DNA from: Alphaproteobacteria bacterium
Lineage (GTDB): Bacteria > Pseudomonadota > Alphaproteobacteria > SMXP01
DNA: 64,000 nt
Assembly (NCBI GenBank): GCA_965248815.1
Contig: CBDFKK010000008.1
Span: 3,061,290-3,125,289, forward strand
Reading direction: 5' to 3'
Below are positions 465 to 46,691 of the stretch, in pieces (the first letter of the stretch is position 1; each line of letters starts with the position of its first letter). The notes under the pieces were generated by a model that ran no database searches, was not told the origin of the DNA, and saw only the letters and a list, made by a program, of their open reading frames with translations. A program made the position numbers and the translations under genes.

Positions 465-785
465 TTAGGGACTGCTCGCCGACTTCATTGAAGATCGCAC
501 AATGCGCCGCAATCGCTGGGGTTTGGAGCCTGGCACCCGCTCGATCATGCCCCGCGCCTCAAGATCCAACTTGACGCAAACCGTGTACCAATTTACCGAC
601 CCTTCGATGTGTTTTGGCAACACGCGCTTCACCGCCTTGGGCAATTCATTAAACGTAATGCCGTCTTTAGATTTTGGCACGACTTTGAGAATAGCCTTCT
701 TGTAGGCATCATATTTTGTCTTGGAAATGCGCGTACCGCCCGAGCCTTCGATGGGACTCCGAGTCTGAATTTTCTCCTCGGCCAT
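465..785 (-). CDS. conserved hypothetical protein (106 aa, basic)
   Basis: ORF with ATG start and TAA stop. It lies 4 bp downstream of the enoyl-CoA hydratase gene on the same strand. No recognisable catalytic motif. Confidence 0.4.
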   Translation of the reverse strand: MAEEKIQTRSPIEGSGGTRISKTKYDAYKKAILKVVPKSKDGITFNELPKAVKRVLPKHIEGSVNWYTVCVKLDLEARGMIERVPGSKPQRLRRIVRSSMKSASSP

Positions 786-788
786 TTT

Positions 789-1640
789 TTAGATGTCTTT
801 TCTTAACGGACCCAAATCTTCAAAGTATGGTGCGCGTTTCTGACCTTGGGCCCCGGCTGCTTCCATAATGTCACGGGGCTCGAACATCCCCGCCTGCCAG
901 GTCGCGATATGATCCAAGGCGTCGGCAATCGAATGGTCGCGCGCATAGTTGATCATTCTTTTTGACCCCGCGACCGCCAGAGGTGACTTCGCGGCAATCT
1001 CCGACGCGGTCGCCACGACCGCTTCCATCATTGCGTCGTGATCGGCATAAACTTCATTGACCAAACCAATAGACTTTGCGGTTTGCGCGTCCAGCCGGCG
1101 GCCCGTATAGGCGAGCTCGCGCACCCAACCTTGCGGGATCAAATGACATAGGCGAGGAAACGTTCCTACGTCCGCCGTCATACCGATGTTAATTTCTTGA
1201 ATGCAAAAGAACGCTTCGTCGGTGCAGTAGCGCAGGTCGCAGGCGGATACCAAGTCATCGCCGGCGCCAATGCAGCCACCTTGAACAGCAGCGATCACCG
1301 GCATGCGCGCATCGTCAAGACAATTGAATGTTTCTTGAAGATGAAGAACCAAGGTTCGAAATGCGTCGCGATCCCTTGCGCTGGCCGCATCTCCCGTTCC
1401 AGCCAGGCGCCCTATTAATTCGTTTTGCGAAAAAATATTGAGATCAATGCCCGCCGTAAAATGTTTGCCAAGCGATGAAATCACAATAACGCGCGCCTCA
1501 CCGCGTTCATCAATTTGTCGAACGGCTGTTGGCAATTCATCCCAGAATTCTCGGATCATTGTGTTGAAGACGTCCGGGCGGTTGAACTTCAGATGAGCGA
1601 TACTGTCGGCGATTGTGAGATCGAAGCAGTTGTAGGTCAT
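789..1640 (-). CDS. enoyl-CoA hydratase/isomerase (crotonase) family protein
   Basis: 283-aa ORF with crotonase-fold motifs (ISSLGKHFTAGIDL, AAVQGGCIGAGDDL). Confidence 0.8.
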   Translation of the reverse strand: MTYNCFDLTIADSIAHLKFNRPDVFNTMIREFWDELPTAVRQIDERGEARVIVISSLGKHFTAGIDLNIFSQNELIGRLAGTGDAASARDRDAFRTLVLHLQETFNCLDDARMPVIAAVQGGCIGAGDDLVSACDLRYCTDEAFFCIQEINIGMTADVGTFPRLCHLIPQGWVRELAYTGRRLDAQTAKSIGLVNEVYADHDAMMEAVVATASEIAAKSPLAVAGSKRMINYARDHSIADALDHIATWQAGMFEPRDIMEAAGAQGQKRAPYFEDLGPLRKDI

Positions 1641-11266: not shown

Positions 11267-12181
11267 ATGACGGCACCATTGGTTGAAACTTGTCGCGGCT
11301 TCGTCAACACGTGGGAATGCGATGAAAACGATCATTAAAATGTGCAGTTCTATTTTGCCAAAAAAAGTGAAGCCGACGCTCACTTCCGGCTTCACCTCGG
11401 TTTGCTGCCAGCCGATCGGACCGAGGACAAAACGCATGTGCGCGTTAGCCAAGATCATGTGCGCTTTCACGCCGAGCTGCGCGCCGCCGACACGTTTGCG
11501 ATAACGACAGGCATCGTCGGGATTGATGACACGACACTTAGTGTCTTTCACACCATGACCAAAAGCAACGGCGAGCTTGCGGCGACTATGGTCACGACCT
11601 GGGAGCACGTCGACGCTGATTCCGGCGCGCCGGCAATTTGGCCGGATGATGTCAAAGAACAAGCCGCACGCCGTCACGTCGATCTTCCTGATAACGCTCT
11701 GTGGCGCTCGGCGGACAGACGCGCGCCCTTTCCAGATATCAAACTTGACGAAGCCGAAATCCAAAATGCTCTCACGGTATATCGAGGACTCGTACACCCG
11801 GCAGAGTGCGACGGGCTAGGGCATATGACGCCGCGCTTCCACATTTCGCGCACGTCGGATGGGGCTGCTCATTTTTGGAATGCGTTCGGCTTCTATAGCG
11901 GCGATCTTCAAGAGCAAAATCGCGGGTCGGTCGTGCTCGAATACTTGCTCACCTATTGCCGTCCGTTTAAAGCCGGCGATCCCATTGAAGTTAAGTCGTT
12001 CATTCGATCCGTCGGCTCTAAGACGATTAGCTTTACGCACTTGCTATTTGATCGGAAGACCGGCCGATTGAACGCCATTGCCGATCCAACCGCCGTGCTG
12101 TTTGATCAGACAACGCGCAAAGCCATCGAACTCAGCACGGAGGAACGCGCGCGCTTCGAGCCCGGCATCCGACAGATTTGA
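11267..12181 (+). pseudogene. hotdog-fold acyl-CoA thioesterase (4HBT-like, double hotdog) interrupted by an in-frame TAA at 11336-11338
   Basis: RBS GAGGA precedes the ATG at 11267. The 23 codons MTAPLVETCRGFVNTWECDENDH contain the 4HBT catalytic D..GH motif, then TAA, then the same frame continues as NVQFYFAKK... (ORF 11342-12181, GTG start). The full motif expected is D..GH-x-NN..Y. Confidence 0.55.
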
Positions 12182-12190
12182 GTTCAAGGA

Positions 12191-12763
12191 TTGCTAATGA
12201 CTTCCAATGCTGAACAGCAATTTGCGGTAGAAGTTCTCGACTTCTTGCCCGATGAGGAAGTGGAACGCTTTTACTTTCCTGGCCCAAGCAAAGCCGGTGG
12301 CCACGATGGTGTGATCGTAAAACTCACCGGAGAAAATGAACGGCAATGGGTCGGCGTTTTTGCATTCGGAAATTATCCAAATACGGTATCGCGCTTTTGC
12401 GGTACGGTCTTAGGGCCAGAGAACGTCGTGATCATTGCCGAGGGACAAGGTTACTTCGTTTCCGCAAACAATCCAGAAAAGTACGGAGAAGTTGATTGCT
12501 TTCCCATTTTTGGAGTTCACCAATCTGCAAAGCACTCGATAATTTGCTTTCACGATCATGGCAGGTTTGTCGGATACGGTCGAAAAGGTCTAGCATGGAC
12601 AGCAGTACCTATCAGCACCGATGAAATTAAAGTTCATGCGGCAAGTGAAGATGAAATTGAAGGCCGTGCTTGGAGTGATTCCAAACAGCAATTCGTTGGA
12701 TTTGGAATTAATATCAAAGACGGAAAAACATCGATCAGCCATAAGTTCTTGATGGATGAATAG
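12191..12763 (+). CDS. hypothetical protein; lower-GC orphan ORF
   Basis: 190-aa ORF with GC clearly below the flanks. No recognisable motifs. Confidence 0.45.
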   Translation: MLMTSNAEQQFAVEVLDFLPDEEVERFYFPGPSKAGGHDGVIVKLTGENERQWVGVFAFGNYPNTVSRFCGTVLGPENVVIIAEGQGYFVSANNPEKYGEVDCFPIFGVHQSAKHSIICFHDHGRFVGYGRKGLAWTAVPISTDEIKVHAASEDEIEGRAWSDSKQQFVGFGINIKDGKTSISHKFLMDE

Positions 12764-22077: not shown

Positions 22078-22230
22078 CAATCTAATTAATTTGTTAGACG
22101 TCTTGGCCTCTGAGTGCTCACAACATTGTCACGGATTTGGCCAGATTTTTCGCGTTTCATTAGGGTGTTGGTAGGCTCGATCGCGATAGGATTTGGGCAT
22201 CCGCAAGCCACGATCCGCAGAGTAAAGAGT

Positions 22231-22872
22231 ATGAGTTGCGTTCAATTCCGGTACCGCGGCCCCGCAGCTGCCGTCTTGGTCCTTACCCTTGGATTGATGG
22301 TCGAGAGTTGCACGACAGTACCAACGTCATCACGCACGTCCGCCTCTCTTCCGCAAAGTTCAGCCAGCGCCTTCAGCCGGGCCTGTGTGCCGGCGAATTC
22401 GAAGTCCGCCACGGTGAGAGACCTCAAGGCCAAGATTCACGCCTACACAAATGCCAACCGTCGCCGTCACGGCGCTAGCGCGGTGAAACTCACATGTGAA
22501 CAGGGATTGACCCTGGTTGCAGATTCTCACAGCGATTGGATGGCCCAGGCCAAAAAGATGTCACACAGAGATAATCGCGGCCAAGTACCCTATGACCGTG
22601 TCATCGCCCACTACCCTTCGTATCAAGGTTCGATCGCTGAAAATCTTGGCGTCATTACGACAACTTATAGCGGTCCCGGATCGCGGACCCGGGCGGACAA
22701 CTATTCTTTTAATTCCGATGAAATGGCAAAAAACTTTGTAGACGGCTGGATGAACAGCCCGGGGCACCGAAAAAATTTACTCCATCCCCGGATGACGCAC
22801 TTGGGTGTGGGCGTTGCCCTGCGTGGCACGTCCATCTATGTCACTCAAGTGTTTGCCGATCCGGCGGAGTAA
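22231..22872 (+). CDS. CAP/SCP/PR-1-like secreted (probable lipo)protein
   Basis: Signal peptide with a Cys (LMVESC). The C-terminal GHRKNLLHP...HLGVGV matches the CAP-domain signature. Confidence 0.65.
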   Translation: MSCVQFRYRGPAAAVLVLTLGLMVESCTTVPTSSRTSASLPQSSASAFSRACVPANSKSATVRDLKAKIHAYTNANRRRHGASAVKLTCEQGLTLVADSHSDWMAQAKKMSHRDNRGQVPYDRVIAHYPSYQGSIAENLGVITTTYSGPGSRTRADNYSFNSDEMAKNFVDGWMNSPGHRKNLLHPRMTHLGVGVALRGTSIYVTQVFADPAE

Positions 22873-23130
22873 TTCGTTAACGATTTGTTACTGCGCCATA
22901 ACACATCGTTCGAACCTGCGGCTTCGCTTAAGTGTGCTTTGCGACGCCGCATTTAACTTCAATTAACCAATATTACTCAGGATGTGATTTGGGGGCAGCG
23001 CTGCCGCGCACGCTTGTGACGCGCACTCGAATGCGCCGCTGCATTACTACTAGGACTTGTGGAGACGAGGCTCGTCACCACGAGATGTGGTGTAGAGCCG
23101 AGAGTTTGTCGACGGGGAATTGAGTCGAGT

Positions 23131-24426
23131 ATGAAGCCGGGCGTCCCATGGAGTGTCAAAGGCGTCGAGCCTGACGCACGTGCCGTTGCAAAATTAGCGG
23201 CTCGCAAGTCCGGCATGACCCTTGGCCAATGGCTAAATCATGTAATTCGAGAAGTCGGTTCGCTTGAAGCTGGACTCGATGATGATGCCGTTGACGCCGA
23301 CACCTCACAAATTCAGCAACTGAATGCTCTATTGGAAAGTGGCGTTGACGCTGCCAAGGGCGGCCGCCGGGCTGAGGGATCCCCCCGTTCAGATTCCGAT
23401 ATCAACGCCGTACATACTGCACTTGCCGATATGGTCAAACGTTTCGAGAAGGCGCAGCAGAAGAGCTCAATGATATTGGACAATCTAGACAACACCATAA
23501 GCGGTGTTGCCGCCAGGCTGGACGCCGTCGACGACAGTGCGCCCGACAGATCGTCCGGTGAAGATCCGTTTACCATCGTTCAGGCCATGCAGGTCGAACT
23601 TTTGGACCGGATCAAGAGGCTGGAAGCCAGCGGTACGAGTTCGTCTGCAAATACGGCTCTAAAACCGATCGAAGATGCCTTAAGCAAGGTCGCCATTCAT
23701 ATTGAGCGCAACGAAAGAAACGCGCTCGAGGGACTGCAGGCGATGCAAGCCGCAATCAGTCGCTTGGTCGATCGCCTTAACTCCGACCAGTCAGATAAAG
23801 CGCAAACCGCAAAGACCGTTGAACTGGCTATTGAACGTTTGAGTACGCAGCTTCAACACCGCGACGAACTCTATCAACGCGATCAAGACACATTGGATCG
23901 GTCCCTCGACGGCGTGCGGGAACGGGTCGCGAAAATCGAGGAGGAAGCGCGCGACACATCAGAGTCAATCAGAGAAAAGCTCTACGATCTATCTGCATCG
24001 CTGGAGAATGCGGCGAGTGCCCCTTCTAGAGAGGACGAGACTGGAACGGGGCCTTTGGATACCGGCCGGCTCGACAGTTTAGAATCCGAACTTCGAGATC
24101 TGGGTCGCAAGCTGGATGATGCTGATGAACGATTTAACGGTGCAATTAACAAGCTCGGCGGAGAGTTGATCGCAATCCGCGTTCATTTGGATCAGGCCCA
24201 GGCCGACACCACTGAGGACATCCAACAGACTACCGAACTGCCCGGCGCGCAACCGCCGTCTGAGCCGCCCGAAGCAGAGACGCCTCCCGAGCCTGAACCG
24301 AGCCTGAAGAAGAAACGCCTACGGCCAAGCAAGCCGATGCGCCTGCGGATAACTCAAAACAAGCCTATTTCTCAGACGAAGATGACAGTGCTCAAGACGA
24401 CAGCGACGATGGCCGTCTCATCCTAA
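23131..24426 (+). CDS. podJ: PodJ-like polar localisation factor, N-terminal cytoplasmic coiled-coil part; frame broken by an 11-bp tandem duplication
   Basis: N-terminus MKPGVPWSVKGVEPDARAVAKLAARKSGMTLGQWLNHVI matches the conserved PodJ N-terminal box. Long coiled-coil. The last ~40 codons are out-of-frame junk after the duplication at 24287-24308. Confidence 0.5.
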   Translation: MKPGVPWSVKGVEPDARAVAKLAARKSGMTLGQWLNHVIREVGSLEAGLDDDAVDADTSQIQQLNALLESGVDAAKGGRRAEGSPRSDSDINAVHTALADMVKRFEKAQQKSSMILDNLDNTISGVAARLDAVDDSAPDRSSGEDPFTIVQAMQVELLDRIKRLEASGTSSSANTALKPIEDALSKVAIHIERNERNALEGLQAMQAAISRLVDRLNSDQSDKAQTAKTVELAIERLSTQLQHRDELYQRDQDTLDRSLDGVRERVAKIEEEARDTSESIREKLYDLSASLENAASAPSREDETGTGPLDTGRLDSLESELRDLGRKLDDADERFNGAINKLGGELIAIRVHLDQAQADTTEDIQQTTELPGAQPPSEPPEAETPPEPEPSLKKKRLRPSKPMRLRITQNKPISQTKMTVLKTTATMAVSS

Positions 24427-24431
24427 AAGAA

Positions 24432-25676
24432 GTGTTGGTCCCCAACAAAAATCAACCGAGCGAACAAGAGACTACCACAAAGAGTGACGAGTCATCGGTC
24501 GGCCAAAACGACGAGAGCAAAGAAACGGATGCCAACGCGCTTGTAGCACTCTTTAAAGGCGTTGCCCGAGAAGCTCGGGCATCAGTCAAGGGGTTCGAAA
24601 AAGCTGACAAACGCGAAAATGTCTTGGACGTACAAGATGAGCAAAGCGCCTGGCGTCAAACCTTTGTCAATGCAGGATTTTTGTTTGCGTTCTTTCTTAC
24701 CATGACCCTAGGGGCCGTGTTCCTCCTCAACGGCGAAACGGAAATTCCCGGCTTAGGCCGGCCTGACGTCGTATCCAGTTTGAATGAAGCCGCCAATGCA
24801 GCAAAGAGAAGTGTATCGTCGCTTTTCGGCGGTTCCGACGAGACAGCGGAAGGTGAGTCGACGGCGACACTTCCTGGGACAGGAATTGATCCTTCAGTCT
24901 CAGACACCGCGCCCGCAGAGTCTTTTGCCGTCGATGTCTCGATTGATGATGCTATCGACGCAGATACCGGCGCTCCCGATCTATCGGCTTCAACCACGTT
25001 CGAGCCTAGCGCCACGCGTCCCCTTACTGTCGACGCTACAGGCGATGGTTCCGCCGTTACTGCAATCGATTCTATTAGTACGTTGACCAGAGCAGCGCTC
25101 GCTGGGGATGCCTATGCGCAATATTTGTTAGGCGGCAGATATCTAAACGGAGACGGCGTCGAACTCGATTCCGCGCGCGGCGCTCTCTTGGTTCAGCAAG
25201 CCGCGACGACCGGGCTGCCGTCCGCCCAATACCGACTTGGTACATTGTTTGAACGCGGGGAGGGCGTACCGCGAGATCCCCTCAATGCGATCAAATGGTA
25301 CGAAAAGGCTGCGGTAGCGGGCGAAGTCAAGGCTATGCACAATCTCGCCGTACTCCACGCCGAAGGCTCCAGCATCCCTCAAGACTTTAGCATTGCATCG
25401 CGATGGTTCGAGGTCGCGGCCGAGCGGGGCTTAGCCGACTCTCAATTCAATCTCGGCATCCTTCGCCAAAAGGGTTTGGGAATTTCAAAGGACATGGTCG
25501 AGGCTTACAAGTGGTTTGCGCTGGCGGCCCGGGACGGGGACCAAGAAGCAGAACGTCAACGGCTTGCCGTCGAATCGCAATTGTCGCCCTCTGCGCTCAC
25601 TGAAGCCAGAAACCTCGTCGATCGTTGGGAGCCTTTGTCACTGACCACCGCGCCGATTCCTATTGAGAGTGAGTGA
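24432..25676 (+). CDS. podJ: PodJ-like C-terminal part (TM segment + periplasmic Sel1/TPR repeats); this reading frame is open from 24297
   Basis: An acidic linker, one TM helix and at least four Sel1 repeats (AQYRLGTLFERGEGVPRD, AMHNLAVLHAEG, SQFNLGILRQKGLGISKD, AYKWFALAARDG). Removing one copy of the 11-bp repeat fuses it in frame to 23131-24426. Confidence 0.5.
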   Translation: MLVPNKNQPSEQETTTKSDESSVGQNDESKETDANALVALFKGVAREARASVKGFEKADKRENVLDVQDEQSAWRQTFVNAGFLFAFFLTMTLGAVFLLNGETEIPGLGRPDVVSSLNEAANAAKRSVSSLFGGSDETAEGESTATLPGTGIDPSVSDTAPAESFAVDVSIDDAIDADTGAPDLSASTTFEPSATRPLTVDATGDGSAVTAIDSISTLTRAALAGDAYAQYLLGGRYLNGDGVELDSARGALLVQQAATTGLPSAQYRLGTLFERGEGVPRDPLNAIKWYEKAAVAGEVKAMHNLAVLHAEGSSIPQDFSIASRWFEVAAERGLADSQFNLGILRQKGLGISKDMVEAYKWFALAARDGDQEAERQRLAVESQLSPSALTEARNLVDRWEPLSLTTAPIPIESE

Positions 25677-34046: not shown

Positions 34047-35498
34047 ATGACCGACAACAAATTTGACCACCATCCAAGTTTTCCGGCAGGCAAAGCCGCA
34101 GTCCAAGGCCTACTCGTCGTTTTATTGGTCTGCCTGCAGGCGAATGCTCAGGATTTCGAGTTGCGCAAGGAGCTACTGGCGCGACCACTGGACCCTAACC
34201 TTGGGGGAGAAACGACAATCGTAAAAGACGATGAACGAGCTTTTGAACGGATCATCGCCAATGCAACAACAATGACAAAAGTATCTTTCAATGTGGGCCG
34301 TACGGTCTTTGAAACCGACTGGGAGGCCGCCCCCGGATTACAACCGGCGACGGACGGGTTAGGCCCCTTATTTCACCAAGACCAATGTTCTGACTGCCAC
34401 GAAAACAATGGGCGTGGTCGTCCGCCGGAGACTGAAGGCGGCCCCATGGAATCGATGCTCGTCAGGTTGAGTATTCCTGGGTCCAATAATCATGGCGGGC
34501 CAAATCCCATTCCACTTTACGGCGATCAATTGCAAGATCACGCCGTAGATGGCGTCCCGGCGGAGGGCCGGGCGGTGATGACCTGGACCGAGCAAGACGG
34601 AACTTATGGCGACGGCACGCCCTATTCATTGCGCAAACCCGAACTGACTTTCGCTGATTTGAGCTACGGCGAGATGCCGGCTAACGCGATGTCATCGGCA
34701 CGGGTAGGAAACCCCGTTATTGGTTTGGGGCTTCTCGAAGCGGTTCCCGACGTTACCCTTCATGCGCTAGCGGACCCCGAAGATCAGGACGGGGACGGGA
34801 TATCGGGGCGCGTCAATTTGGTTTGGGACGCGCCGACGGCGGAGATGGCTGTGGGCCGCTTTGGCTGGAAGGCAAATGTAGCAAGTCTCAAACATCAAAC
34901 TGCCGCAGCAGCACTCGGCGATATGGGCATTACCTCGCCGATATTCATGGAGGATCATTGCGACGAGGGACAGACCGCGTGCCAGCAAAAGGCGTTGGAC
35001 GTTGAGGACCACCCGCCAGAAGTTCGGCCGGAGCTTTTTGAACGATTGGTTCAATTCAACAAAGTCACCGCAGTTCCGGCGCAAAGAAACAGTGAAGACG
35101 CAGACGTGAAGAATGGCGAAGCGTTGTTTCGTGATATCGGTTGTAGCTCTTGCCATATGACAACACTCATGACGGGCGAAAGCGAACATTCTGAATTGTC
35201 CGACCAAGTTATTCATCCATTTACCGATCTTCTGCTCCATGACATGGGCGAAGGCTTGGCCGATGGCCGGCCCGACTTCGAAGCATCGGGCAGTGAATGG
35301 CGCACTCAACCTCTGTGGGGCATCGGCCTAACGAAGCGCGTCAGCGGATTTAGTCTATTCCTGCACGACGGCCGCGCCCGCAGCTTTGCCGAAGCGATAC
35401 TTTGGCATGGCGGCGAAGCAGAAGCGGCCCGTGAAAACTTTCGTGAATTAGGCGCTGAACAAAGAACTGCCTTGATCGACTTTCTAAATTCAATCTAG
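34047..35498 (+). CDS. DUF1111 di-heme cytochrome c peroxidase-like (thiol oxidoreductase) protein
   Basis: Signal peptide and two CxxCH heme sites (CSDCHEN, CSSCHMT), with DUF1111-like spacing. Confidence 0.7.
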   Translation: MTDNKFDHHPSFPAGKAAVQGLLVVLLVCLQANAQDFELRKELLARPLDPNLGGETTIVKDDERAFERIIANATTMTKVSFNVGRTVFETDWEAAPGLQPATDGLGPLFHQDQCSDCHENNGRGRPPETEGGPMESMLVRLSIPGSNNHGGPNPIPLYGDQLQDHAVDGVPAEGRAVMTWTEQDGTYGDGTPYSLRKPELTFADLSYGEMPANAMSSARVGNPVIGLGLLEAVPDVTLHALADPEDQDGDGISGRVNLVWDAPTAEMAVGRFGWKANVASLKHQTAAAALGDMGITSPIFMEDHCDEGQTACQQKALDVEDHPPEVRPELFERLVQFNKVTAVPAQRNSEDADVKNGEALFRDIGCSSCHMTTLMTGESEHSELSDQVIHPFTDLLLHDMGEGLADGRPDFEASGSEWRTQPLWGIGLTKRVSGFSLFLHDGRARSFAEAILWHGGEAEAARENFRELGAEQRTALIDFLNSI

Positions 35499-35531
35499 GA
35501 AGGATTGTTCCGCTTTGAAGGAGGACGAGAA

Positions 35532-36236
35532 ATGAAGCTATTCGGTAAGGCCATGTTCGCGGCATCACTTTTGGCCGCATCACCCGTGCTGTCACAAGCC
35601 TTTCTAGACCAAGAACTGTCAGAATCAGATCTCGAACAGTTCTTTGGACTGATTGAAGACGGTAAAATCTCAAAGGATAAAATGAGTGATCGATGCGCCG
35701 ATCAACAGGTTGCCTTTACGTTTCTGGGCCGCGATGTTCCGCATGACGGTGGTCCGAAGCGCGTTCTCTACAACGTTTCCCGCCAAGACACGTCTGTCGA
35801 CGGTCGCACGCTCCGCGCCAAACTCTTCAATGCTTCGTTCGGCGAATGGACTGGCTCCGTCTTCAAGGCCATGTGTCCCGGCATCTATTCGATATCCATC
35901 GACTTTGCGACAGACGACGTCGAGAACGCAGCCGACGATGTCTTTGTCCATCTGCATGTCAGACGCGCGGAAGAGGATCGGCCCGGACCTGCCGTCGTCA
36001 GCGCGGTAAAATTAGGCCCCGGCAATCGGGGCAATGGCCATGCTACGCTCGCAATTCCACTCCACATGGGCGACGAAGTATCAACCTGGTCGGAGGGAAA
36101 AGGTTCCGGCACAGCACGCCATTTTCATCAGATAACACTCACAGCGCACAAATTCGCCCATGTGGAAGACTATGTCGAAGAACTAGACATGGACGCTTGG
36201 AACGATGACATTGCCGCACTTGCCGCCATGCAATGA
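35532..36236 (+). CDS. secreted C1q-like (jelly-roll) domain protein
   Basis: RBS GGAGGA precedes the ATG at 35532. Signal peptide. The C-terminal region follows the C1q pattern (AFTF...LYNVSRQD...GEWTGSVFKAMCPGIYSISIDF...VHLHV...ATLAIPLHMGDEVSTW). Confidence 0.5.
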   Translation: MKLFGKAMFAASLLAASPVLSQAFLDQELSESDLEQFFGLIEDGKISKDKMSDRCADQQVAFTFLGRDVPHDGGPKRVLYNVSRQDTSVDGRTLRAKLFNASFGEWTGSVFKAMCPGIYSISIDFATDDVENAADDVFVHLHVRRAEEDRPGPAVVSAVKLGPGNRGNGHATLAIPLHMGDEVSTWSEGKGSGTARHFHQITLTAHKFAHVEDYVEELDMDAWNDDIAALAAMQ

Positions 36237-40176: not shown

Positions 40177-40566
40177 TTAAGCCACCCGTGCGCCGTGCAA
40201 TACTTTGGCCAGATCGGGCGGCGAAAAATTAGGACCTTTGAGAACTTTGCCGTCTTCACGTAAGACCGGCTGTCCATCTTCGCCAAGTTTTGACATATTC
40301 GATGAGTGTACTTCGCTAAAGGCCTGTTCCTTTAAATGATGAAGACCGAACTCAAGGAATGTGCCATCCACTACATATTGAATGTCGCAAAGCGCGTCGA
40401 GCACCTCGACTAAGTCTCCTGCCTCTACGGCTTCGCGCAATTCACGCACTTCTTCTTCGAGAATAGATAAGCGCATTTCCGCTCTACCCTTGGGCAGCGA
40501 CGGTGCATCGACGACGGGTACTTTGAAATGCTGATGCCATGATTTGACGAGCGCGAGCGTATCCAT
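40177..40566 (-). CDS. MazG-like nucleotide pyrophosphohydrolase family protein
   Basis: The EEVRELREAVEAGDLVEVLDALCDIQYVVDG pattern (E..E..EA..D.L) matches the MazG/HisE-like all-alpha NTP-PPase fold. Start at the Met at 40566. Confidence 0.55.
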   Translation of the reverse strand: MDTLALVKSWHQHFKVPVVDAPSLPKGRAEMRLSILEEEVRELREAVEAGDLVEVLDALCDIQYVVDGTFLEFGLHHLKEQAFSEVHSSNMSKLGEDGQPVLREDGKVLKGPNFSPPDLAKVLHGARVA

Positions 40567-40637
40567 TTGACGTTTCCCTTTTGTTGTTTGTTGGACTGAT
40601 GACTGAACACGCACAAGAGCGTTGCAACAGTACTCAA

Positions 40638-41369
40638 TTACCGATCGGGCGAAAGACTGGAAGATTCAACTGGATATACGCGATCGCGGCCGAGCATCCA
40701 GGCCACGAACCCATTGTCGAAATGAGGCCGGTAGGCCTCATCGAGCACATTGAGCCCGCCCGTATAGGCGCCCATAGCCGGCATAATGAGATTGATGCCG
40801 TCGGTTACAAAACAGCGCCGGCGCACACTGCGCCCGTCGCGTCGCACTTTCGCGCATGGATGGTAATGACCGGTGACTTGGCCTGGCAAAGGCAGCGGCA
40901 ATACTTCATGTCGGAACGTCAGCCGACCGATTTGAATTTCCTCGGCGATCGTGCCGCCGAAATCCTCAGGCAACGCTTCATCGTGATTGCCGAGGATCCA
41001 CGTCCAGTCATGTGCCGCAACGAGACTTTTCAAAACGACTAAGTCATCATCGTCCAACCGGGCATGGGCCTCGCCGTCGTGAAAGCTATCGCCCAGCGCA
41101 ACGACGCGAGCCGGCTGCCGGCGCGCGCAAACTTCTCCGAGGACCCGAAGTGTCGAGCGCGTGTCATAGGGCGGCAGCACCAGACCATGGCGCGCATAGG
41201 AAGATCCCTTTTCCAAGTGGAGATCAGAAACGACAAGCACGCTCTCATCCGGCCAGTAAAGCGCGCCGCTCCAGTCGGGAACGACGAGAGCGCCGTTGAC
41301 GTCAAAAGCCGTGACGTCTTTATCGTCTTGAGCTAAGGCGTGGGTCGTCAAGGCGAGTGGCCTCCGCAA
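40638..41369 (-). CDS. pdeM: ligase-associated DNA damage response endonuclease PdeM (metallophosphoesterase)
   Basis: Calcineurin-like motifs SDLHLEKG, GDSFHD and GNHD. Lies in a conserved cluster with the Lhr-like helicase, MBL exonuclease and ligase. Confidence 0.75.
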   Translation of the reverse strand: MRRPLALTTHALAQDDKDVTAFDVNGALVVPDWSGALYWPDESVLVVSDLHLEKGSSYARHGLVLPPYDTRSTLRVLGEVCARRQPARVVALGDSFHDGEAHARLDDDDLVVLKSLVAAHDWTWILGNHDEALPEDFGGTIAEEIQIGRLTFRHEVLPLPLPGQVTGHYHPCAKVRRDGRSVRRRCFVTDGINLIMPAMGAYTGGLNVLDEAYRPHFDNGFVAWMLGRDRVYPVESSSLSPDR

Positions 41370-43938
41370 TCAAGTCTTCCGCCGCATCGGCGAGAATGGC
41401 GTCACTGGCCTCACCATGCACAGATTCGCGCCCAATCTCCAGAAGAACGGGCACCGCGAGCGGAGATACCCGTGTCAGCCGCGCCACGATAATGTTGTTC
41501 TTGATCCGTTTAAGGAGCTGGCCCAAGCGCGCAATATCCAAAAGCCCTGTGGCCGCATCTTGTTGAGTGGCGCGGAGCAAGATGTGATTAGGCTCGTGTT
41601 CGCGCAAGACGTCGTAAATCAAGTCAGACGAAAATGTCACTTGGCGACCCGACTTTTCCTGTCCCGGATAGCGCCGCTGAATAAGTCCGGCAATGATGGC
41701 GCAGTTACGGAACGTGCGTTTGAGTAAATTCGATTCCGCAAGCCAAGCGTCGAGATCGTCGCCCATCATGTCTTCGTCAAACAATTCGCCAAGGTCAATT
41801 TTGCTTAGGTCCCGCAAACCCCAAATCGCCAGCGCATATTCGCTTGCGACAAAGCCGAGCGGCCGCATGCGCATGCGCTCAAGCCGGCGCGACAACAACA
41901 TGCCGAGACTTTGGTGAACCAGCCGCCCGTCGAAGGGATAGCAAACCATGAAATATTTGCCCGAGCGCGGAAAGGTTTCCACGAGCAGTTCATGGGGCTT
42001 GGGCAAGAGCGAGCGCATGTCTTGAATGGCCAGCCATTCGGTAACCGGCGCCGGCAATTGCTTCCAGTTCTTAGGCGAACTTAGCATTTGGCGCACGCGG
42101 CCAGCTAAATATGTCGACAACGGAAACTTACCACCTTGATAGGACGGTACTTTGGGCGACTCTTCCGCTGCGCGGGTCACGATGGCCGCATTTTCGTGCA
42201 TAGCCTCAAAGCGCAACACTTCACCCGATAACAGAAATGTGTCGTCGGGCATGAGTTGCTCGACGAACCACTCTTCGACTTCGCCCAGCTTGCGCCCGCT
42301 CCGTGCGCCCGCCGGCTGACGGGATACTTTGCACACCAAGCGCACGTCGACCATGGGTGCTTCGACAATCGTGCCGACATTGAGGCGGTACTGTTGCGCA
42401 ACGCGGGGGTTGGCGACTTGAAAGCGTCCACGGTCATTGAGCCGAATGCGTTTGTAGCGTTCATATTGCCGCAGCGCATAGCCACCGGTGGACACAAAGT
42501 CGACAACCTGATTGAAATTGTCGCGCGTGACGTGGGTGTAAGGCGCCGCAGACCTTACTTCGGTATACAGTTCATCGGGATTGAAGGGTTCGGCACAGGC
42601 CATGCCCAGTACATGCTGCGCCAACACGTCGAGCCCTCCTTGGCGCGGCGGATTGCCATCGAGCACACCTTCGTGGACGGCATCTCGCGCGGCTTTGCAC
42701 TCCAACACTTCAAAGCGGTTCGCTGGCACCAAAAGCGCGCGGCTCGGCTCATCCAAACGATGATTGGAGCGGCCAATGCGCTGAGTCAACCGGCTAGCCC
42801 CTTTTGGCGCGCCAACAGTGATAACCAGATCGACTTCGCCCCAGTCAACGCCCAAATCGAGGGTCGACGTACATACGACCGCTTGGAGCGAGCCTGCAAT
42901 CATGGCCGCTTCCACTTTACGGCGCTGCTCGACGGCCAGGGATCCGTGATGCAACGCAATGGCAAGCCCGTCATCGTTGATGCGCCACAGCTCTTGGAAA
43001 ATCATTTCCGCTTGACTGCGTGTATTGACGAAGATGAGTGCCGTGCGCGCCTTACGAATGGCCTCGTAGACTTCCGGCAATGCATGACGCGCGGTGTGGC
43101 CCGACCAAGGAATATGCTCTTCCGACGCCAAAATTCTAAGTTCGGGCGTCGCGCCCGGTTCGCCAATGATGAGCGACGACAATCGCTCACGAGGCGCTAA
43201 CTCTTGGCTTTCAAGCTTCGGAGTTTTTGTCACACTCAGATCACATTGCGGCACCAAATAGCGGCGCAGATATTCCGGCTCGGCAACAGTCGCCGACAGG
43301 CCGATGCGCCGCACTTCCGGTGCCAAACGAGACAACCGCGCCAGCGCCAACGCAAGCAATTCGCCGCGCTTTGAATTGATGAGTGAGTGGAGCTCGTCGA
43401 TGATGATGTAACGCAAAGATTTAAAAAAACGACTCGAGTCCCGGTAAGCCAACAGAAGCGCCACTTGTTCCGGCGTCGTCATCAAAATATCTGGCGGCGA
43501 GCGGCGTTGGCGCTGACGGCGCCCGGGCGGCGTGTCGCCTGTGCGGGTTTCCACCTCAATGCCTAATTGCATTTCCCGGACCGGTGTTTCCACATTGCGC
43601 GCCACATCGACCGCGAGCGCCTTCAAAGGAGAGATGTAAAGCGTATGGAGGCGCGGCGCGCGCATCCCCGCTTTGGCCCGCGGCCGATCGGCTAGTTCAA
43701 TGAGACTTGGCAAGAACCCCGCGAGAGTCTTGCCCCCACCCGTTGGTGCGATGAGCAACGCCGACTCGCCGCGCCCCGCCCGTTCTACCAACTCGAGCTG
43801 ATGGCGCCTTGGCCGCCAGCCGCGGTCAGCGAACCAGTCTGCAAAGACTGAGGGCAGCTCGGTTTGTGGCTCGATTGCTCTGGCGCCGCGTTCATCCATG
43901 AGGTCACTATAGTGAATGCTAAGACGCCGCATGCCCAA
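41320..43938 (-). CDS. ligase-associated DNA damage response DEXH-box helicase (Lhr-like)
   Basis: Walker A APTGGGKT, DEAH-like IIDELHS, and helicase C-terminal plus Lhr-specific winged-helix regions. Confidence 0.8.
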   Translation of the reverse strand: MGMRRLSIHYSDLMDERGARAIEPQTELPSVFADWFADRGWRPRRHQLELVERAGRGESALLIAPTGGGKTLAGFLPSLIELADRPRAKAGMRAPRLHTLYISPLKALAVDVARNVETPVREMQLGIEVETRTGDTPPGRRQRQRRSPPDILMTTPEQVALLLAYRDSSRFFKSLRYIIIDELHSLINSKRGELLALALARLSRLAPEVRRIGLSATVAEPEYLRRYLVPQCDLSVTKTPKLESQELAPRERLSSLIIGEPGATPELRILASEEHIPWSGHTARHALPEVYEAIRKARTALIFVNTRSQAEMIFQELWRINDDGLAIALHHGSLAVEQRRKVEAAMIAGSLQAVVCTSTLDLGVDWGEVDLVITVGAPKGASRLTQRIGRSNHRLDEPSRALLVPANRFEVLECKAARDAVHEGVLDGNPPRQGGLDVLAQHVLGMACAEPFNPDELYTEVRSAAPYTHVTRDNFNQVVDFVSTGGYALRQYERYKRIRLNDRGRFQVANPRVAQQYRLNVGTIVEAPMVDVRLVCKVSRQPAGARSGRKLGEVEEWFVEQLMPDDTFLLSGEVLRFEAMHENAAIVTRAAEESPKVPSYQGGKFPLSTYLAGRVRQMLSSPKNWKQLPAPVTEWLAIQDMRSLLPKPHELLVETFPRSGKYFMVCYPFDGRLVHQSLGMLLSRRLERMRMRPLGFVASEYALAIWGLRDLSKIDLGELFDEDMMGDDLDAWLAESNLLKRTFRNCAIIAGLIQRRYPGQEKSGRQVTFSSDLIYDVLREHEPNHILLRATQQDAATGLLDIARLGQLLKRIKNNIIVARLTRVSPLAVPVLLEIGRESVHGEASDAILADAAEDLIAEATRLDDPRLSSRR

Positions 43939-44070
43939 ATCCAGCGGTGCGATTACTCACCCCCTCAGCCGTCCCCCGCATTGCTCAGGACTGCGTTCTT
44001 CATTCAGGAGAAAAGGTTGGCGTGAGAGGGTCGTCTCGCGGTCAGCAGCGGCTTATGTCAGAGTTGTTTC

Positions 44071-45102
44071 ATGACAATAGCACCGGAAGACTTACTGAGA
44101 CCGACGCCCGCAGGGCTTTATTGCCCTCCGGGGGATTTCTATGTCGATCCAGTACGTGCGGTCGACCGCGCCGTCATCACTCACGGTCACGGGGACCATG
44201 CCCGCGCCGGCCATAGAAAAGTCATCGCAACCAAAGAAACCCTGGCCATCATGGCCGCGCGCTATGGCGAAGATTTTGCCCGCACTCGGACTGCTGCCTC
44301 TTATGGTGAAACGACGAAGATCAATGGTGTCAGTGTCCGACTTGTGCCCGCAGGCCACATTTTGGGAAGCGCGCAAGTGGTTTTGGAAAAGAACGGCACG
44401 CGCATTGTCGTGTCCGGCGACTACAAGCGCCGCCCTGATTCCACGTGCGATCCCTTCGAGCCGATCCCATGCGACATCTATGTGACGGAAGCAACATTCG
44501 GCTTGCCGGTCTTTCGCCACCCGCTCGATACAGAAGAAATCGACAAACTGTTGACCTCGGTCAAAACGTTTCCGGAGCGCACGCATCTTGTCGGGGTGTA
44601 CGCTCTAGGCAAAGCGCAACGTGTGATCAGTCTCATCCGCCAGGCTGGTTACGATGCACCGCTTTATTATCATGGCGCCGCCGAGAAACTATGCCGTCTG
44701 TACGAGAGTTTCGGCATTGACCTCGGTGACTTGCGCCCGGTCAAAGACGAAACGGAAGACGCCCTCAAAGGTCAAATCGTGATCGCACCGCCGTCTGCGC
44801 TCAACGATCGTTGGTCGCGCCGCCTTGGCGATACCATCACCGCGTTCGCGTCGGGCTGGATGCGCGTGCGTGCCCGCGCGCGCCAGCGCGGCGTCGAATT
44901 ACCCCTCGTCATTTCGGACCACGCAGATTGGGACGAGCTCACATCAACGATCATGGAGATCGCGCCCGGCGAACTTTGGGTCACTCACGGGCAGGAAGAC
45001 GCCCTTGTGCATTTTGCCAAGACACAAAGCATTGCGGCAAAGCCGTTGAGCCTCGTCGGCTACGATGAAGACGGCGGCGATACTGAGCTGGAGGCCTCAT
45101 GA
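44071..45102 (+). CDS. ligase-associated DNA damage response exonuclease (MBL fold / beta-CASP-like)
   Basis: HxHxDH motif ITHGHGDHAR. Overlaps the ligase start by 4 bp. Confidence 0.75.
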   Translation: MTIAPEDLLRPTPAGLYCPPGDFYVDPVRAVDRAVITHGHGDHARAGHRKVIATKETLAIMAARYGEDFARTRTAASYGETTKINGVSVRLVPAGHILGSAQVVLEKNGTRIVVSGDYKRRPDSTCDPFEPIPCDIYVTEATFGLPVFRHPLDTEEIDKLLTSVKTFPERTHLVGVYALGKAQRVISLIRQAGYDAPLYYHGAAEKLCRLYESFGIDLGDLRPVKDETEDALKGQIVIAPPSALNDRWSRRLGDTITAFASGWMRVRARARQRGVELPLVISDHADWDELTSTIMEIAPGELWVTHGQEDALVHFAKTQSIAAKPLSLVGYDEDGGDTELEAS

Positions 45103-46691
45103 ACCGCTTCGCCGCTTTGCTCGACCGTCTTGCCTATCAGCCTCAGAGAAACGAAAAGCTCCGCCTTCTGAGAGCTTATTTCACGGAGACAAAAGATCCG
45201 AACCGGGGCTACGCCCTGGCCGCGCTCACCGGCGCGTTAGACTTCGCCCATGCCAAGCCGGCGCTCCTGCGCGGACTTGTGCAAGAGCGCGTCGACCCTG
45301 TGCTGTTCGAGCTCTCTTACGACTATGTCGGCGATTTGGCGGAGACGACCGCGCTCATTTGGCCGGTGCAGCACGGCGCAAATCGAAGCATCACCCTGAG
45401 CGAACTGGTCGACACGCTGGGTCAAACCGGTAAAGCCGAATTGCCGCAGTTGATCGCTCACTGGCTTGACGGTCTCGACGCCAATGGACGTTGGGCACTG
45501 ATTAAATTTCTCACCGGCGGCCTGCGCGTCGGCGTCTCGGCGCGACTAGCAAAGACGGCTGTCGCAGGACTGGGCGACGTCTCGGTCTCCGACATTGAGG
45601 AGCTTTGGCACGGATTAGAGCCACCCTATGAAGACTTATTTGGGTGGGTTGAAGGCAAGGGCCCAAAACCCACACCCCAAATTGATGCGCCCTTTCGCCC
45701 AGTCATGCTGGCACATGCACTGGAAGATGCCGATCTTGAGAAGCTCGATCCGTCCGACTTTCGCGCCGAATGGAAGTGGGATGGCATCCGCATTCAAGCG
45801 GCAGCACATGGCGAGATGCGGCGGCTCTATAGCCGCTCGGGCGAAGACATCTCTAAAGCATTTCCCGACCTTCTGGAAACCATGACATTCGACGCCACGC
45901 TCGATGGTGAGCTGCTCGTCATGCGCGAGGGAGTCGTTGCGCCGTTCGGAGATCTACAAAAACGCCTCAACCGCAAAACCGTTTCCAAGAAACTTATGGC
46001 GAGTCATCCTGTCGGCGTGCTTGCTTATGATCTCTTAAACGTCGACGGCGAGGATCTACGCCCCCTGCCCTTCGACAACCGCCGAAAAAAGTTGGAAAGT
46101 TGGATTTCAACGCATGCACTACCGTCCTTTGATCTTTCACCGATCATCGATTTTCAATCCTGGGAAGAATTGGCCGAGAAACGACGCGAACCCGCAGAAC
46201 ATGGCGTCGAAGGCGTCATGATCAAGCTGGGGGCTAGCCCCTATATGGCCGGACGCAAAAAAGGCCCTTGGTTCAAATGGAAACGCGATCCGTTTTTAGT
46301 CGACGCCGTTTTGCTTTACGCCCAACGCGGCCACGGCAAACGTTCTTCGTTTTATTCTGATTACACGTTTGGTGTTTGGCGCAGCGGCGAAGACGGCGAC
46401 GAACTCGTGCCCGTGGGCAAAGCCTATTTCGGATTTACGGATGAAGAACTGAAGCGCATCGACAAATTCGTGCGCGATAATACTGTCAATCGGTTCGGTC
46501 CAGTACGCGAAGTCAGCCATGACGCCGACCATGGACTTGTGCTCGAAGTGGCGTTCGAAGGGCTTAACCGGTCAACGAGGCACAAATCAGGCCTGGCCAT
46601 GCGCTTTCCCCGGGTTCACCGATTGCGCTGGGATAAGCCTCCGGCGGAAGCAGATAGCATCGAAGCGCTTGAAGCACTGCTGCCCAACTAG
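45099..46691 (+). CDS. ATP-dependent DNA ligase (cisplatin-damage-response / LigC-like)
   Basis: Adenylation motif with Lys in EWKWDGIRIQ and an OB-fold domain. 530 aa. Confidence 0.85.
   Translation: MNRFAALLDRLAYQPQRNEKLRLLRAYFTETKDPNRGYALAALTGALDFAHAKPALLRGLVQERVDPVLFELSYDYVGDLAETTALIWPVQHGANRSITLSELVDTLGQTGKAELPQLIAHWLDGLDANGRWALIKFLTGGLRVGVSARLAKTAVAGLGDVSVSDIEELWHGLEPPYEDLFGWVEGKGPKPTPQIDAPFRPVMLAHALEDADLEKLDPSDFRAEWKWDGIRIQAAAHGEMRRLYSRSGEDISKAFPDLLETMTFDATLDGELLVMREGVVAPFGDLQKRLNRKTVSKKLMASHPVGVLAYDLLNVDGEDLRPLPFDNRRKKLESWISTHALPSFDLSPIIDFQSWEELAEKRREPAEHGVEGVMIKLGASPYMAGRKKGPWFKWKRDPFLVDAVLLYAQRGHGKRSSFYSDYTFGVWRSGEDGDELVPVGKAYFGFTDEELKRIDKFVRDNTVNRFGPVREVSHDADHGLVLEVAFEGLNRSTRHKSGLAMRFPRVHRLRWDKPPAEADSIEALEALLPN

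Follow-up and report, generated by a model that had tools for sequence, protein, structure and literature searches.

The locus at 23131-25676 raises the question of why a gene for a cell-polarity scaffold of the PodJ family is read in two pieces. It lies in a stretch of 64,000 nucleotides of an alphaproteobacterial genome (GCA_965248815.1, contig CBDFKK010000008.1), here called the window, to which all positions refer. The first piece, open reading frame (ORF) 1, runs in frame 1 from ATG 23131 to TAA 24424-24426. The second, ORF2, occupies 24432-25676 in frame 0 and has 414 codons. An earlier note on this DNA had ascribed the break to a perfect 11-bp tandem duplication between an N-terminal and a C-terminal ORF in different frames, and had proposed either a fresh pseudogenisation or a reversible slipped-strand switch. 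The duplication and the frame change were found as described. The break is probably a real and very young frameshift that truncates or splits the scaffold, and the locus a nascent pseudogene.

The duplication and the single-gene ancestor

The unit CCGAGCCTGAA is present twice in perfect tandem and the copies are 100% identical. Direct reading, a script and Tandem Repeats Finder (TRF; period 11, 2.0 copies, 100% matches) agree on the repeat. It is the sole perfect tandem duplication with a unit of at least 9 nt in the window, where about 0.015 tandem 11-mers are expected by chance (64000 x 4^-11, our own arithmetic). The repeat is perfect in one register only and thus has no flanking microhomology. 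An origin by microhomology slippage was therefore rejected; the nearest GCCT/GCCT pair would give a 9-bp, not an 11-bp, duplication. Frame 0 is open from just after a TGA at 24294-24296. As this stop is part of copy 1, the frame changes at the duplication itself. Deletion of either copy yields a single ORF of 844 codons with the junction ...PPEPEEETPTAKQADAPADNSKQAYFSDEDDSAQDD..., the continuous linker foreseen in the earlier note. The break is located at residue 389 of the fused protein, about 25 residues into a disordered linker.

The intact orthologue P0001 (836 aa, Logan assembly of SRR27456852) matches the repaired protein over 100% of its length at 85% identity. Its DNA, locus L001, aligns with the window for about 3.6 kb at 86% identity, and a single internal indel interrupts this alignment. 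The indel measures 35 bp, lies at 24271-24305 and consists of the new 11 bp and 24 bp of an older in-frame duplication. An intact orthologue thus differs at the break only by an indel that includes the 11 bp, which bears out the duplication as the cause of the split. The older event is visible as a diverged direct repeat, GCCCGAAGCAGAGACGCCT / GCCTGAAGAAGAAACGCCT, with a spacing of 35 = 24 + 11 nt. This pattern implies an earlier in-frame duplication of 24 bp (PEAETPPE / PEEETPTA) in the same Pro/Glu-coding tract; L001 carries one unit only. The older duplication marks the linker tract as prone to indels and duplications.

The gene is also single in the nearest relatives, L001 and L101, and GCA_028280675.1 has an intact single gene of 757 aa at the same position. 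Synteny is kept in more distant relatives, with FadJ, thiolase, two ACAD genes and MerR upstream and TauE and Alph_Pro_TM downstream. In a representative library of 1.84 billion proteins, the native N-terminal half has 1141 relatives at E<=1e-3, and 106 of the best 150 among these are at least 650 aa long. By this comparison, the ancestor had a single, undivided gene. In the window and L001, a CAP/YkwD-like (SCP) gene (252 aa, 22114-22872) lies between those for MerR and PodJ; the more remote syntenic loci L100 and L101 do not have it there.

Table 1. Features of the disrupted podJ-like gene in the window, and domains of the intact orthologue P0001 in its AlphaFold2 model (residue numbers).
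Feature	Position	Strand	Description
Native N-terminal coding part	23131..24297	+	389 codons, frame 1; start MKPGVPWSVKG matches P0001-P0003; ends with the first ~27 residues of the disordered linker
Conserved N-terminal motif	23131-23268	+	residues 1-46
Coiled-coil helices	23392-24216	+	residues ~88-362, predicted from the AlphaFold2 model of the orthologue
Older diverged direct repeat, GCCCGAAGCAGAGACGCCT / GCCTGAAGAAGAAACGCCT	24267..24320	+	19 nt, 84% identical; brackets the new duplication
Copy 1 of CCGAGCCTGAA	24287..24297	+	direct reading, script, TRF
Copy 2 of CCGAGCCTGAA	24298..24308	+	perfect tandem duplicate; adds 11 nt and shifts the frame; absent from L001
Out-of-frame tail of ORF1	24298..24426	+	42 aa, PSLKKKRLRPSKPMRLRITQNKPISQTKMTVLKTTATMAVSS, then TAA 24424-24426
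Native downstream coding part	24309..25676	+	455 codons and stop, frame 0; no stop in the restored frame; remaining acidic disordered linker, TM helix, periplasmic spacer, Sel1 solenoid
First possible start of ORF2	24432..24434	+	GTG (fused V431), 5 nt past the ORF1 stop
Transmembrane (TM) helix	24663-24728	+	
Sel1 solenoid	about 25074-25625	+	
Small N-terminal helical domain	P0001 14-46		pLDDT about 80-89
Long helices	P0001 88-362		pLDDT about 55-75
Disordered linker	P0001 361-500		pLDDT below 50, no secondary structure
TM helix	P0001 497-524		
Sel1 solenoid	P0001 637-820		pLDDT 96-98

Family assignment and predicted products

Caulobacter PodJ has six coiled coils, a charged intrinsically disordered region (IDR), a TM helix and periplasmic TPR and peptidoglycan (PG)-binding domains (PMC8980812). 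Both halves of the fused translation align collinearly to a Caulobacter PodJ. In BLASTP against the protein P0017 from Caulobacter sp. ('Localization factor PodJS'), residues 1-355 matched residues 1-370 with 27% identity (E=2e-24), a stretch in which the near-invariant PWSVKG…GMTLGxWLN motif lies, and the Sel1 region matched with 41% identity (E=2e-28). The motif reads MKPGVPWSVKGVEPDAR…SGMTLGQWLN in the window protein, and xPWSVKGIxPxAR…GMTLGEWLN is the family form. The columns P6, W7, S8, V9, K10, G11, L31, G32, W34, L35 and N36 are invariant or nearly so in 17 family members, among them proteins annotated as PodJL or PodJS. No Pfam or NCBIfam model recognised the N-terminal half. For some matches, PF28217 (FAM81B, a coiled-coil family) was listed.

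The structure was read from the AlphaFold2 (AF2) model of P0001, with the predicted local distance difference test (pLDDT) as its confidence measure (Table 1). Five long predicted helices (H88-139, H146-167, H178-218, H223-296 and H309-362), taken as putative coiled coils, agree with an N-terminal coiled-coil ORF as the earlier note had described it. Of the 146 aa of linker in the window protein, 36 are D/E and 12 are P. Fused residues 508-529 form the one strongly hydrophobic segment, with a peak, AGFLFAFFLTMTLGAVFLL, at 511-529 (Kyte-Doolittle 2.2). Sel1 repeats in the C-terminal half were recognised by Pfam PF08238 in three stretches (E=9e-34), so the C-terminal TM and Sel1 region was also confirmed.

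The C-terminal PG-binding domain PF01471 (PG_binding_1) was recognised in P0017 and P0008, but neither in the window protein nor in P0001 or P0002. The window protein ends about 25 residues beyond the last Sel1 repeat. Many matches annotated as PodJL likewise have no PF01471, and the missing domain thus marks a subfamily difference. By its sequence features, the repaired 844-aa protein is a member of the PodJ family, with the N-terminal motif, coiled coils, a disordered linker, one TM helix and periplasmic Sel1 repeats. The missing PG-binding domain, which defines canonical PodJL, is a caveat on the designation as PodJ-like.

In the proposed course of events, 11 bp were very recently duplicated in tandem within the sequence that encodes the disordered cytoplasmic linker. 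The extra 11 nt shift the frame, and translation from the normal start would yield a soluble product of 431 aa, composed of the coiled-coil scaffold and a basic nonsense tail of 42 aa. This tail, PSLKKKRLRPSKPMRLRITQNKPISQTKMTVLKTTATMAVSS, has 11 K/R and no D/E; in its place, the native protein has an acidic stretch (13 D/E). The 431-aa product would be cut off from most of the linker, from the membrane anchor and from the periplasmic domain. For ORF2, the GTG at 24432 is the only plausible site of termination-reinitiation. No recognisable Shine-Dalgarno sequence precedes it, so that independent translation of ORF2 would depend on inefficient reinitiation, and the 414-codon ORF2 could be synthesised at a low level only. 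An independent, well-initiated ORF2 gained little support: this GTG is its sole start, and scans for sigma-70 promoters and terminators stayed at background.

In Caulobacter PodJ, the coiled coils CC1-3 drive accumulation at the pole and the IDR is the part that binds PleC, while signalling is modulated through the TM and periplasmic domains (PMC8980812); CC4-6 bind PopZ (PMC10127582). By analogy, self-assembly and PopZ binding may persist in the N-terminal piece. The same piece is expected to have lost its tether to the membrane, the recruitment of partners through the linker and the periplasmic functions. Extrapolated from Caulobacter in this way, the likely consequence is a partial to complete loss of function.

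Upstream of the gene, a non-coding element, TTCAATTAACCAATATTACTCAGGATGTGATTTGGGGGCAGCGCTGCCGCGCACGC, is located at 22955-23010, about 120-175 nt before the podJ-like start. Its 55 nt are 100% identical in L001, at 86% identity for the locus overall, and are mostly kept in the far more distant L099. The element contains TTAACCAAT, which is close to the CtrA half-site TTAACCAT. A GANTC site (GAGTC) lies at 23119-23123, just ahead of the ATG. The element may be a cell-cycle regulatory site or a 5'-untranslated region (5'-UTR) element.

Age of the lesion and rival explanations

All 455 codons downstream of the break are stop-free in the restored frame. In a simulation, up to about 0.07 neutral substitutions per site were compatible with this state (P>0.05). 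The dN/dS ratio (omega) against L001 was 0.11 upstream of the break, 0.16 downstream of it and 0.067 in the Sel1 region, at a dS of about 0.5. Amino-acid changes were polarised with three outgroups. Derived changes in the window and in L001 numbered 18 vs 14 upstream and 16 vs 12 downstream (Fisher p=1), and these polarised changes revealed neither relaxed constraint nor an excess of amino-acid change on the window lineage. The upstream non-coding region is intact, including the 55-nt element. These observations point to a lesion that is very recent, or to a downstream ORF still under selection. Identical copies, the stop-free frame, an omega of 0.16 and no lineage-specific relaxation together favour the fresh pseudogenisation. 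Of the two explanations in the earlier note, this one gained support; nothing specific supports the switch.

Several points weigh against a nascent pseudogene or limit this explanation. Unrelaxed constraint downstream is also expected of an ORF2 that still functions. The allele, probably real in the organism, is read from one assembly consensus. Caulobacter PodJ, the basis for the functional consequences, is only about 27-41% identical and has the additional PG-binding domain. The duplication is without flanking microhomology, unlike the classical signature of simple replication slippage. Scans for conspecific alleles produced no close relative: genome contigs yielded distant Sel1 proteins only, and metagenomes yielded generic Sel1 patterns with nothing above 48% identity.

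A further alternative, beyond the two in the earlier note, is a functional two-piece PodJ. The split would be tolerated or fixed, ORF2 would be made by termination-reinitiation at GTG 24432, and the cytoplasmic scaffold and the membrane/periplasmic Sel1 module would act as two proteins, as reported for S. meliloti Rm1021 podJ1/podJ2. The ORF1 stop and the GTG are 5 nt apart, but the GTG has no Shine-Dalgarno sequence. In Caulobacter, the cytoplasmic and periplasmic PodJ domains each reach the pole alone, and a soluble PodJ(1-635) still recruits PleC (PMC8980812). ORF1 of the window, however, loses nearly the whole linker, the part that binds PleC in Caulobacter. Strains of Sinorhizobium meliloti have podJ1 and podJ2 (SMc02231), S. 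medicae the single podJ Smed_0147. The nearest relatives of the window have a single gene. The downstream half is without relaxed constraint, yet extreme youth explains the identical copies and the missing lineage-specific signal equally well. The junction is common to no relative, and other disrupted cases break elsewhere. The two-piece arrangement is improbable on this balance.

An artefact of assembly, consensus or cloning, or a minority or culture-acquired variant in the consensus, would leave the real gene intact. The allele comes from a single deposited record, and local repetitiveness of the tract is a potential source of error in consensus polishing. Common platforms do not, however, usually err by an exact tandem duplication of 11 bp; 1-bp homopolymer indels are typical, and the site has no homopolymer of at least 5. 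The 431-aa ORF1 is on record from a single contig of 3,199,972 bp (NCBI/ENA). No other gene in the 64 kb is frameshifted. About 57 ORFs cover 87% of the window, neighbouring genes agree over their full length with family models or orthologues, and the adjacent same-strand ORF pairs that were tested all had independent full-length domain matches. With no other broken gene among them, a systematic indel error is unlikely. We consider an artefact about as improbable as the two-piece arrangement.

Three pairs of adjacent ORFs in the same frame, a stop and 1-3 codons apart, were seen at 465-1640 (-), 11342-12763 (+) and 34047-36236 (+). To the members with matches, Pfam assigned independent full-length domains (DUF6958 / ECH_1, 4HBT_2 / no match, and DHOR / no match, respectively). 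As far as tested, these pairs do not appear to be read-through or nonsense-split genes.

A reversible switch would turn PodJ on and off by gain and loss of the 11-bp unit through slipped-strand mispairing, comparable to pneumococcal cap3A. Since the two copies match perfectly and 11 is not divisible by 3, the gene would be restored if exactly one copy were lost; such a reversion is mechanically possible. The downstream frame is fully preserved and the tract has been duplicated before, but any fresh tandem duplication looks alike before decay. The repeat has two copies only, and slippage of an 11-bp unit in two copies is expected to occur at a low rate. The unit is not duplicated in the orthologue L001, which also lacks the flanking 24 bp, and no conserved repeat tract exists in family members. 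Phase variation through tandem duplications that arise and are lost again inside an ORF has been described (Waite et al. 2001, in the summary of PMC11163986). At 2.0 copies and with the duplicated unit absent from the orthologue, a dedicated phase-variation tract is not supported by these sequences, and the on/off switch is clearly less probable than either alternative above. Slightly less probable still, and very unlikely, is an 11-bp switch of the cap3A type that acts within a population, be it between off and on or between a one-piece and a two-piece scaffold. If a switch did exist, it would cause heterogeneity in polar organelle development, motility or adhesion, with polarity in place of a surface antigen as its target.

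Programmed -1 ribosomal frameshifting or transcriptional slippage that restores the full-length protein is effectively refuted: the -1 relation of ORF1 to ORF2 would suit it and the duplication is followed by AAG AAG AAA, a Lys-rich run, but there is no in-frame X XXY YYZ heptamer between 24290 and 24430, no homopolymer of at least 5 and no local structure (folding z=0.5; 133/200 shuffles fold as well), and the orthologues are single ORFs that need no frameshift. A literature search naming both PodJ and frameshift returned nothing relevant.

Known systems and other disrupted podJ genes

The putative nascent pseudogene resembles ordinary young indel pseudogenes in all respects considered: a single lesion, an otherwise intact ORF, a preserved promoter region, an intact orthologue in a relative and no decay as yet. 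Nothing substantive sets it apart; its particular points are the polarity scaffold as target and the clean 11-bp duplication. It is an ordinary young frameshift, not a new kind of genetic switch or mechanism.

C. crescentus PodJ (PodJL/PodJS) shares with the repaired protein the PWSVKG…GMTLGxWLN motif and the order of a coiled-coil cytoplasmic domain, a disordered charged linker, a single TM helix and periplasmic Sel1/TPR repeats. In contrast, the window protein has no C-terminal PG_binding_1 domain and 844 vs about 975 aa, with the identities of 27% (N-terminal) and 41% (Sel1) given above, and its gene is frameshifted and known here from sequence.

S. meliloti Rm1021 has its homologue as two adjacent ORFs, podJ1/podJ2 (SMc02230/SMc02231), and the sister species S. 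medicae has one gene, Smed_0147. Fields et al. are said to have described the S. meliloti podJ in 2012 as split into two adjacent ORFs. The S. meliloti pair is a precedent for a split podJ in a viable bacterium, in which the N-terminal ORF keeps function. The two organisms are distant. In the window, the split stems from a clean 11-bp duplication, which lies in the linker ahead of the TM helix.

The window and S. pneumoniae cap3A have in common a perfect tandem duplication in coding sequence, a unit length not divisible by 3, a gene that is off and a restoration by precise loss. Reversibility and high frequency have been measured for cap3A, whereas the window offers one allele in a tract that is not conserved.

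Disrupted podJ genes recur in public data. The syntenic relative L099 (66-1325; JGI 3300048637, Ga0496633_0010870; about 50% identity) has a podJ-like gene of only 419 aa. It is without the first ~21 codons, which include the PWSVKG motif, about 130 codons of the coiled coils and the entire periplasmic Sel1 domain; TauE starts 14 nt past its stop. This suggests decay or streamlining of PodJ in the clade. In an anaerobic digester metagenome, a Caulobacter-like podJ (L102, 1472-3319, ENA ERZ941560) has an in-frame TAG in the coiled-coil region (…EALEKLSV*IALITERLADR…), after which the same frame runs on to the contig end. Another homologue (L105, 437-2277, ENA ERZ1066119) is frameshifted in the coiled-coil region after …QQVEHRTADA; at a coverage of 3.8x, this frameshift is possibly a sequencing error. 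A contig of 1179 bp (L104, 86-1168, ENA ERZ28612967) encodes a podJ-like N-terminal ORF of 360 aa (P0204). Its stop lies 11 nt from the contig end, its translation ends …QRVAKFKV* and no frame continues, consistent with either a truncated gene or an end-of-contig error.

The earlier note had considered that relatives might have two separate genes with the same junction. None was found among the short matches to the N-terminal half that were inspected. P0077 and P0312 are contig-end fragments, and the TAG of L102, the frameshift of L105 and the deletions of L099 are lesions at other positions. As no disrupted case shares the junction, there is no conserved two-gene architecture at this position. 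With this recurrence and the precedent in S. meliloti, the earlier assessment of the broken gene as notable was overstated.

The organism is an alphaproteobacterium that has no close relatives with a name: the best named matches of a neighbouring helicase, from Rhizomicrobium, Rhodoligotrophos and Parvibaculum, are 63-68% identical. Elsewhere in the window, what appears to be a complete ligase-associated DNA-damage-response cluster lies at 40177-46691. It includes an Lhr-like DEXH helicase at 41320-43938 (TIGR04121, full length) with small ORFs on the minus strand. The divergent, overlapping ORFs 44071-45102 and 45099-46691 presumably encode the exonuclease and the ATP-dependent ligase. The only other perfect short tandem repeat of the window, AAAGTTGG x2.1 at 46088-46104, lies within the latter ORF (530 aa) and is read through in frame, so it is not disruptive.

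For annotation, the two ORFs of the podJ-like locus are best joined into one gene with a frameshift flag. Provided that the allele is real, this strain carries a naturally occurring linker truncation of a PodJ-family scaffold. The coiled-coil part for self-assembly and PopZ binding would be separated from the linker, the anchor and the Sel1 module. Together with L099, the other broken podJ genes and S. meliloti, this suggests that PodJ has been repeatedly lost or remodelled in alphaproteobacteria, which fits the observation that some of them have no PodJ homologue at all (PMC10127582). In a small way, the locus may thus add to what is known of the evolvability of polarity modules.

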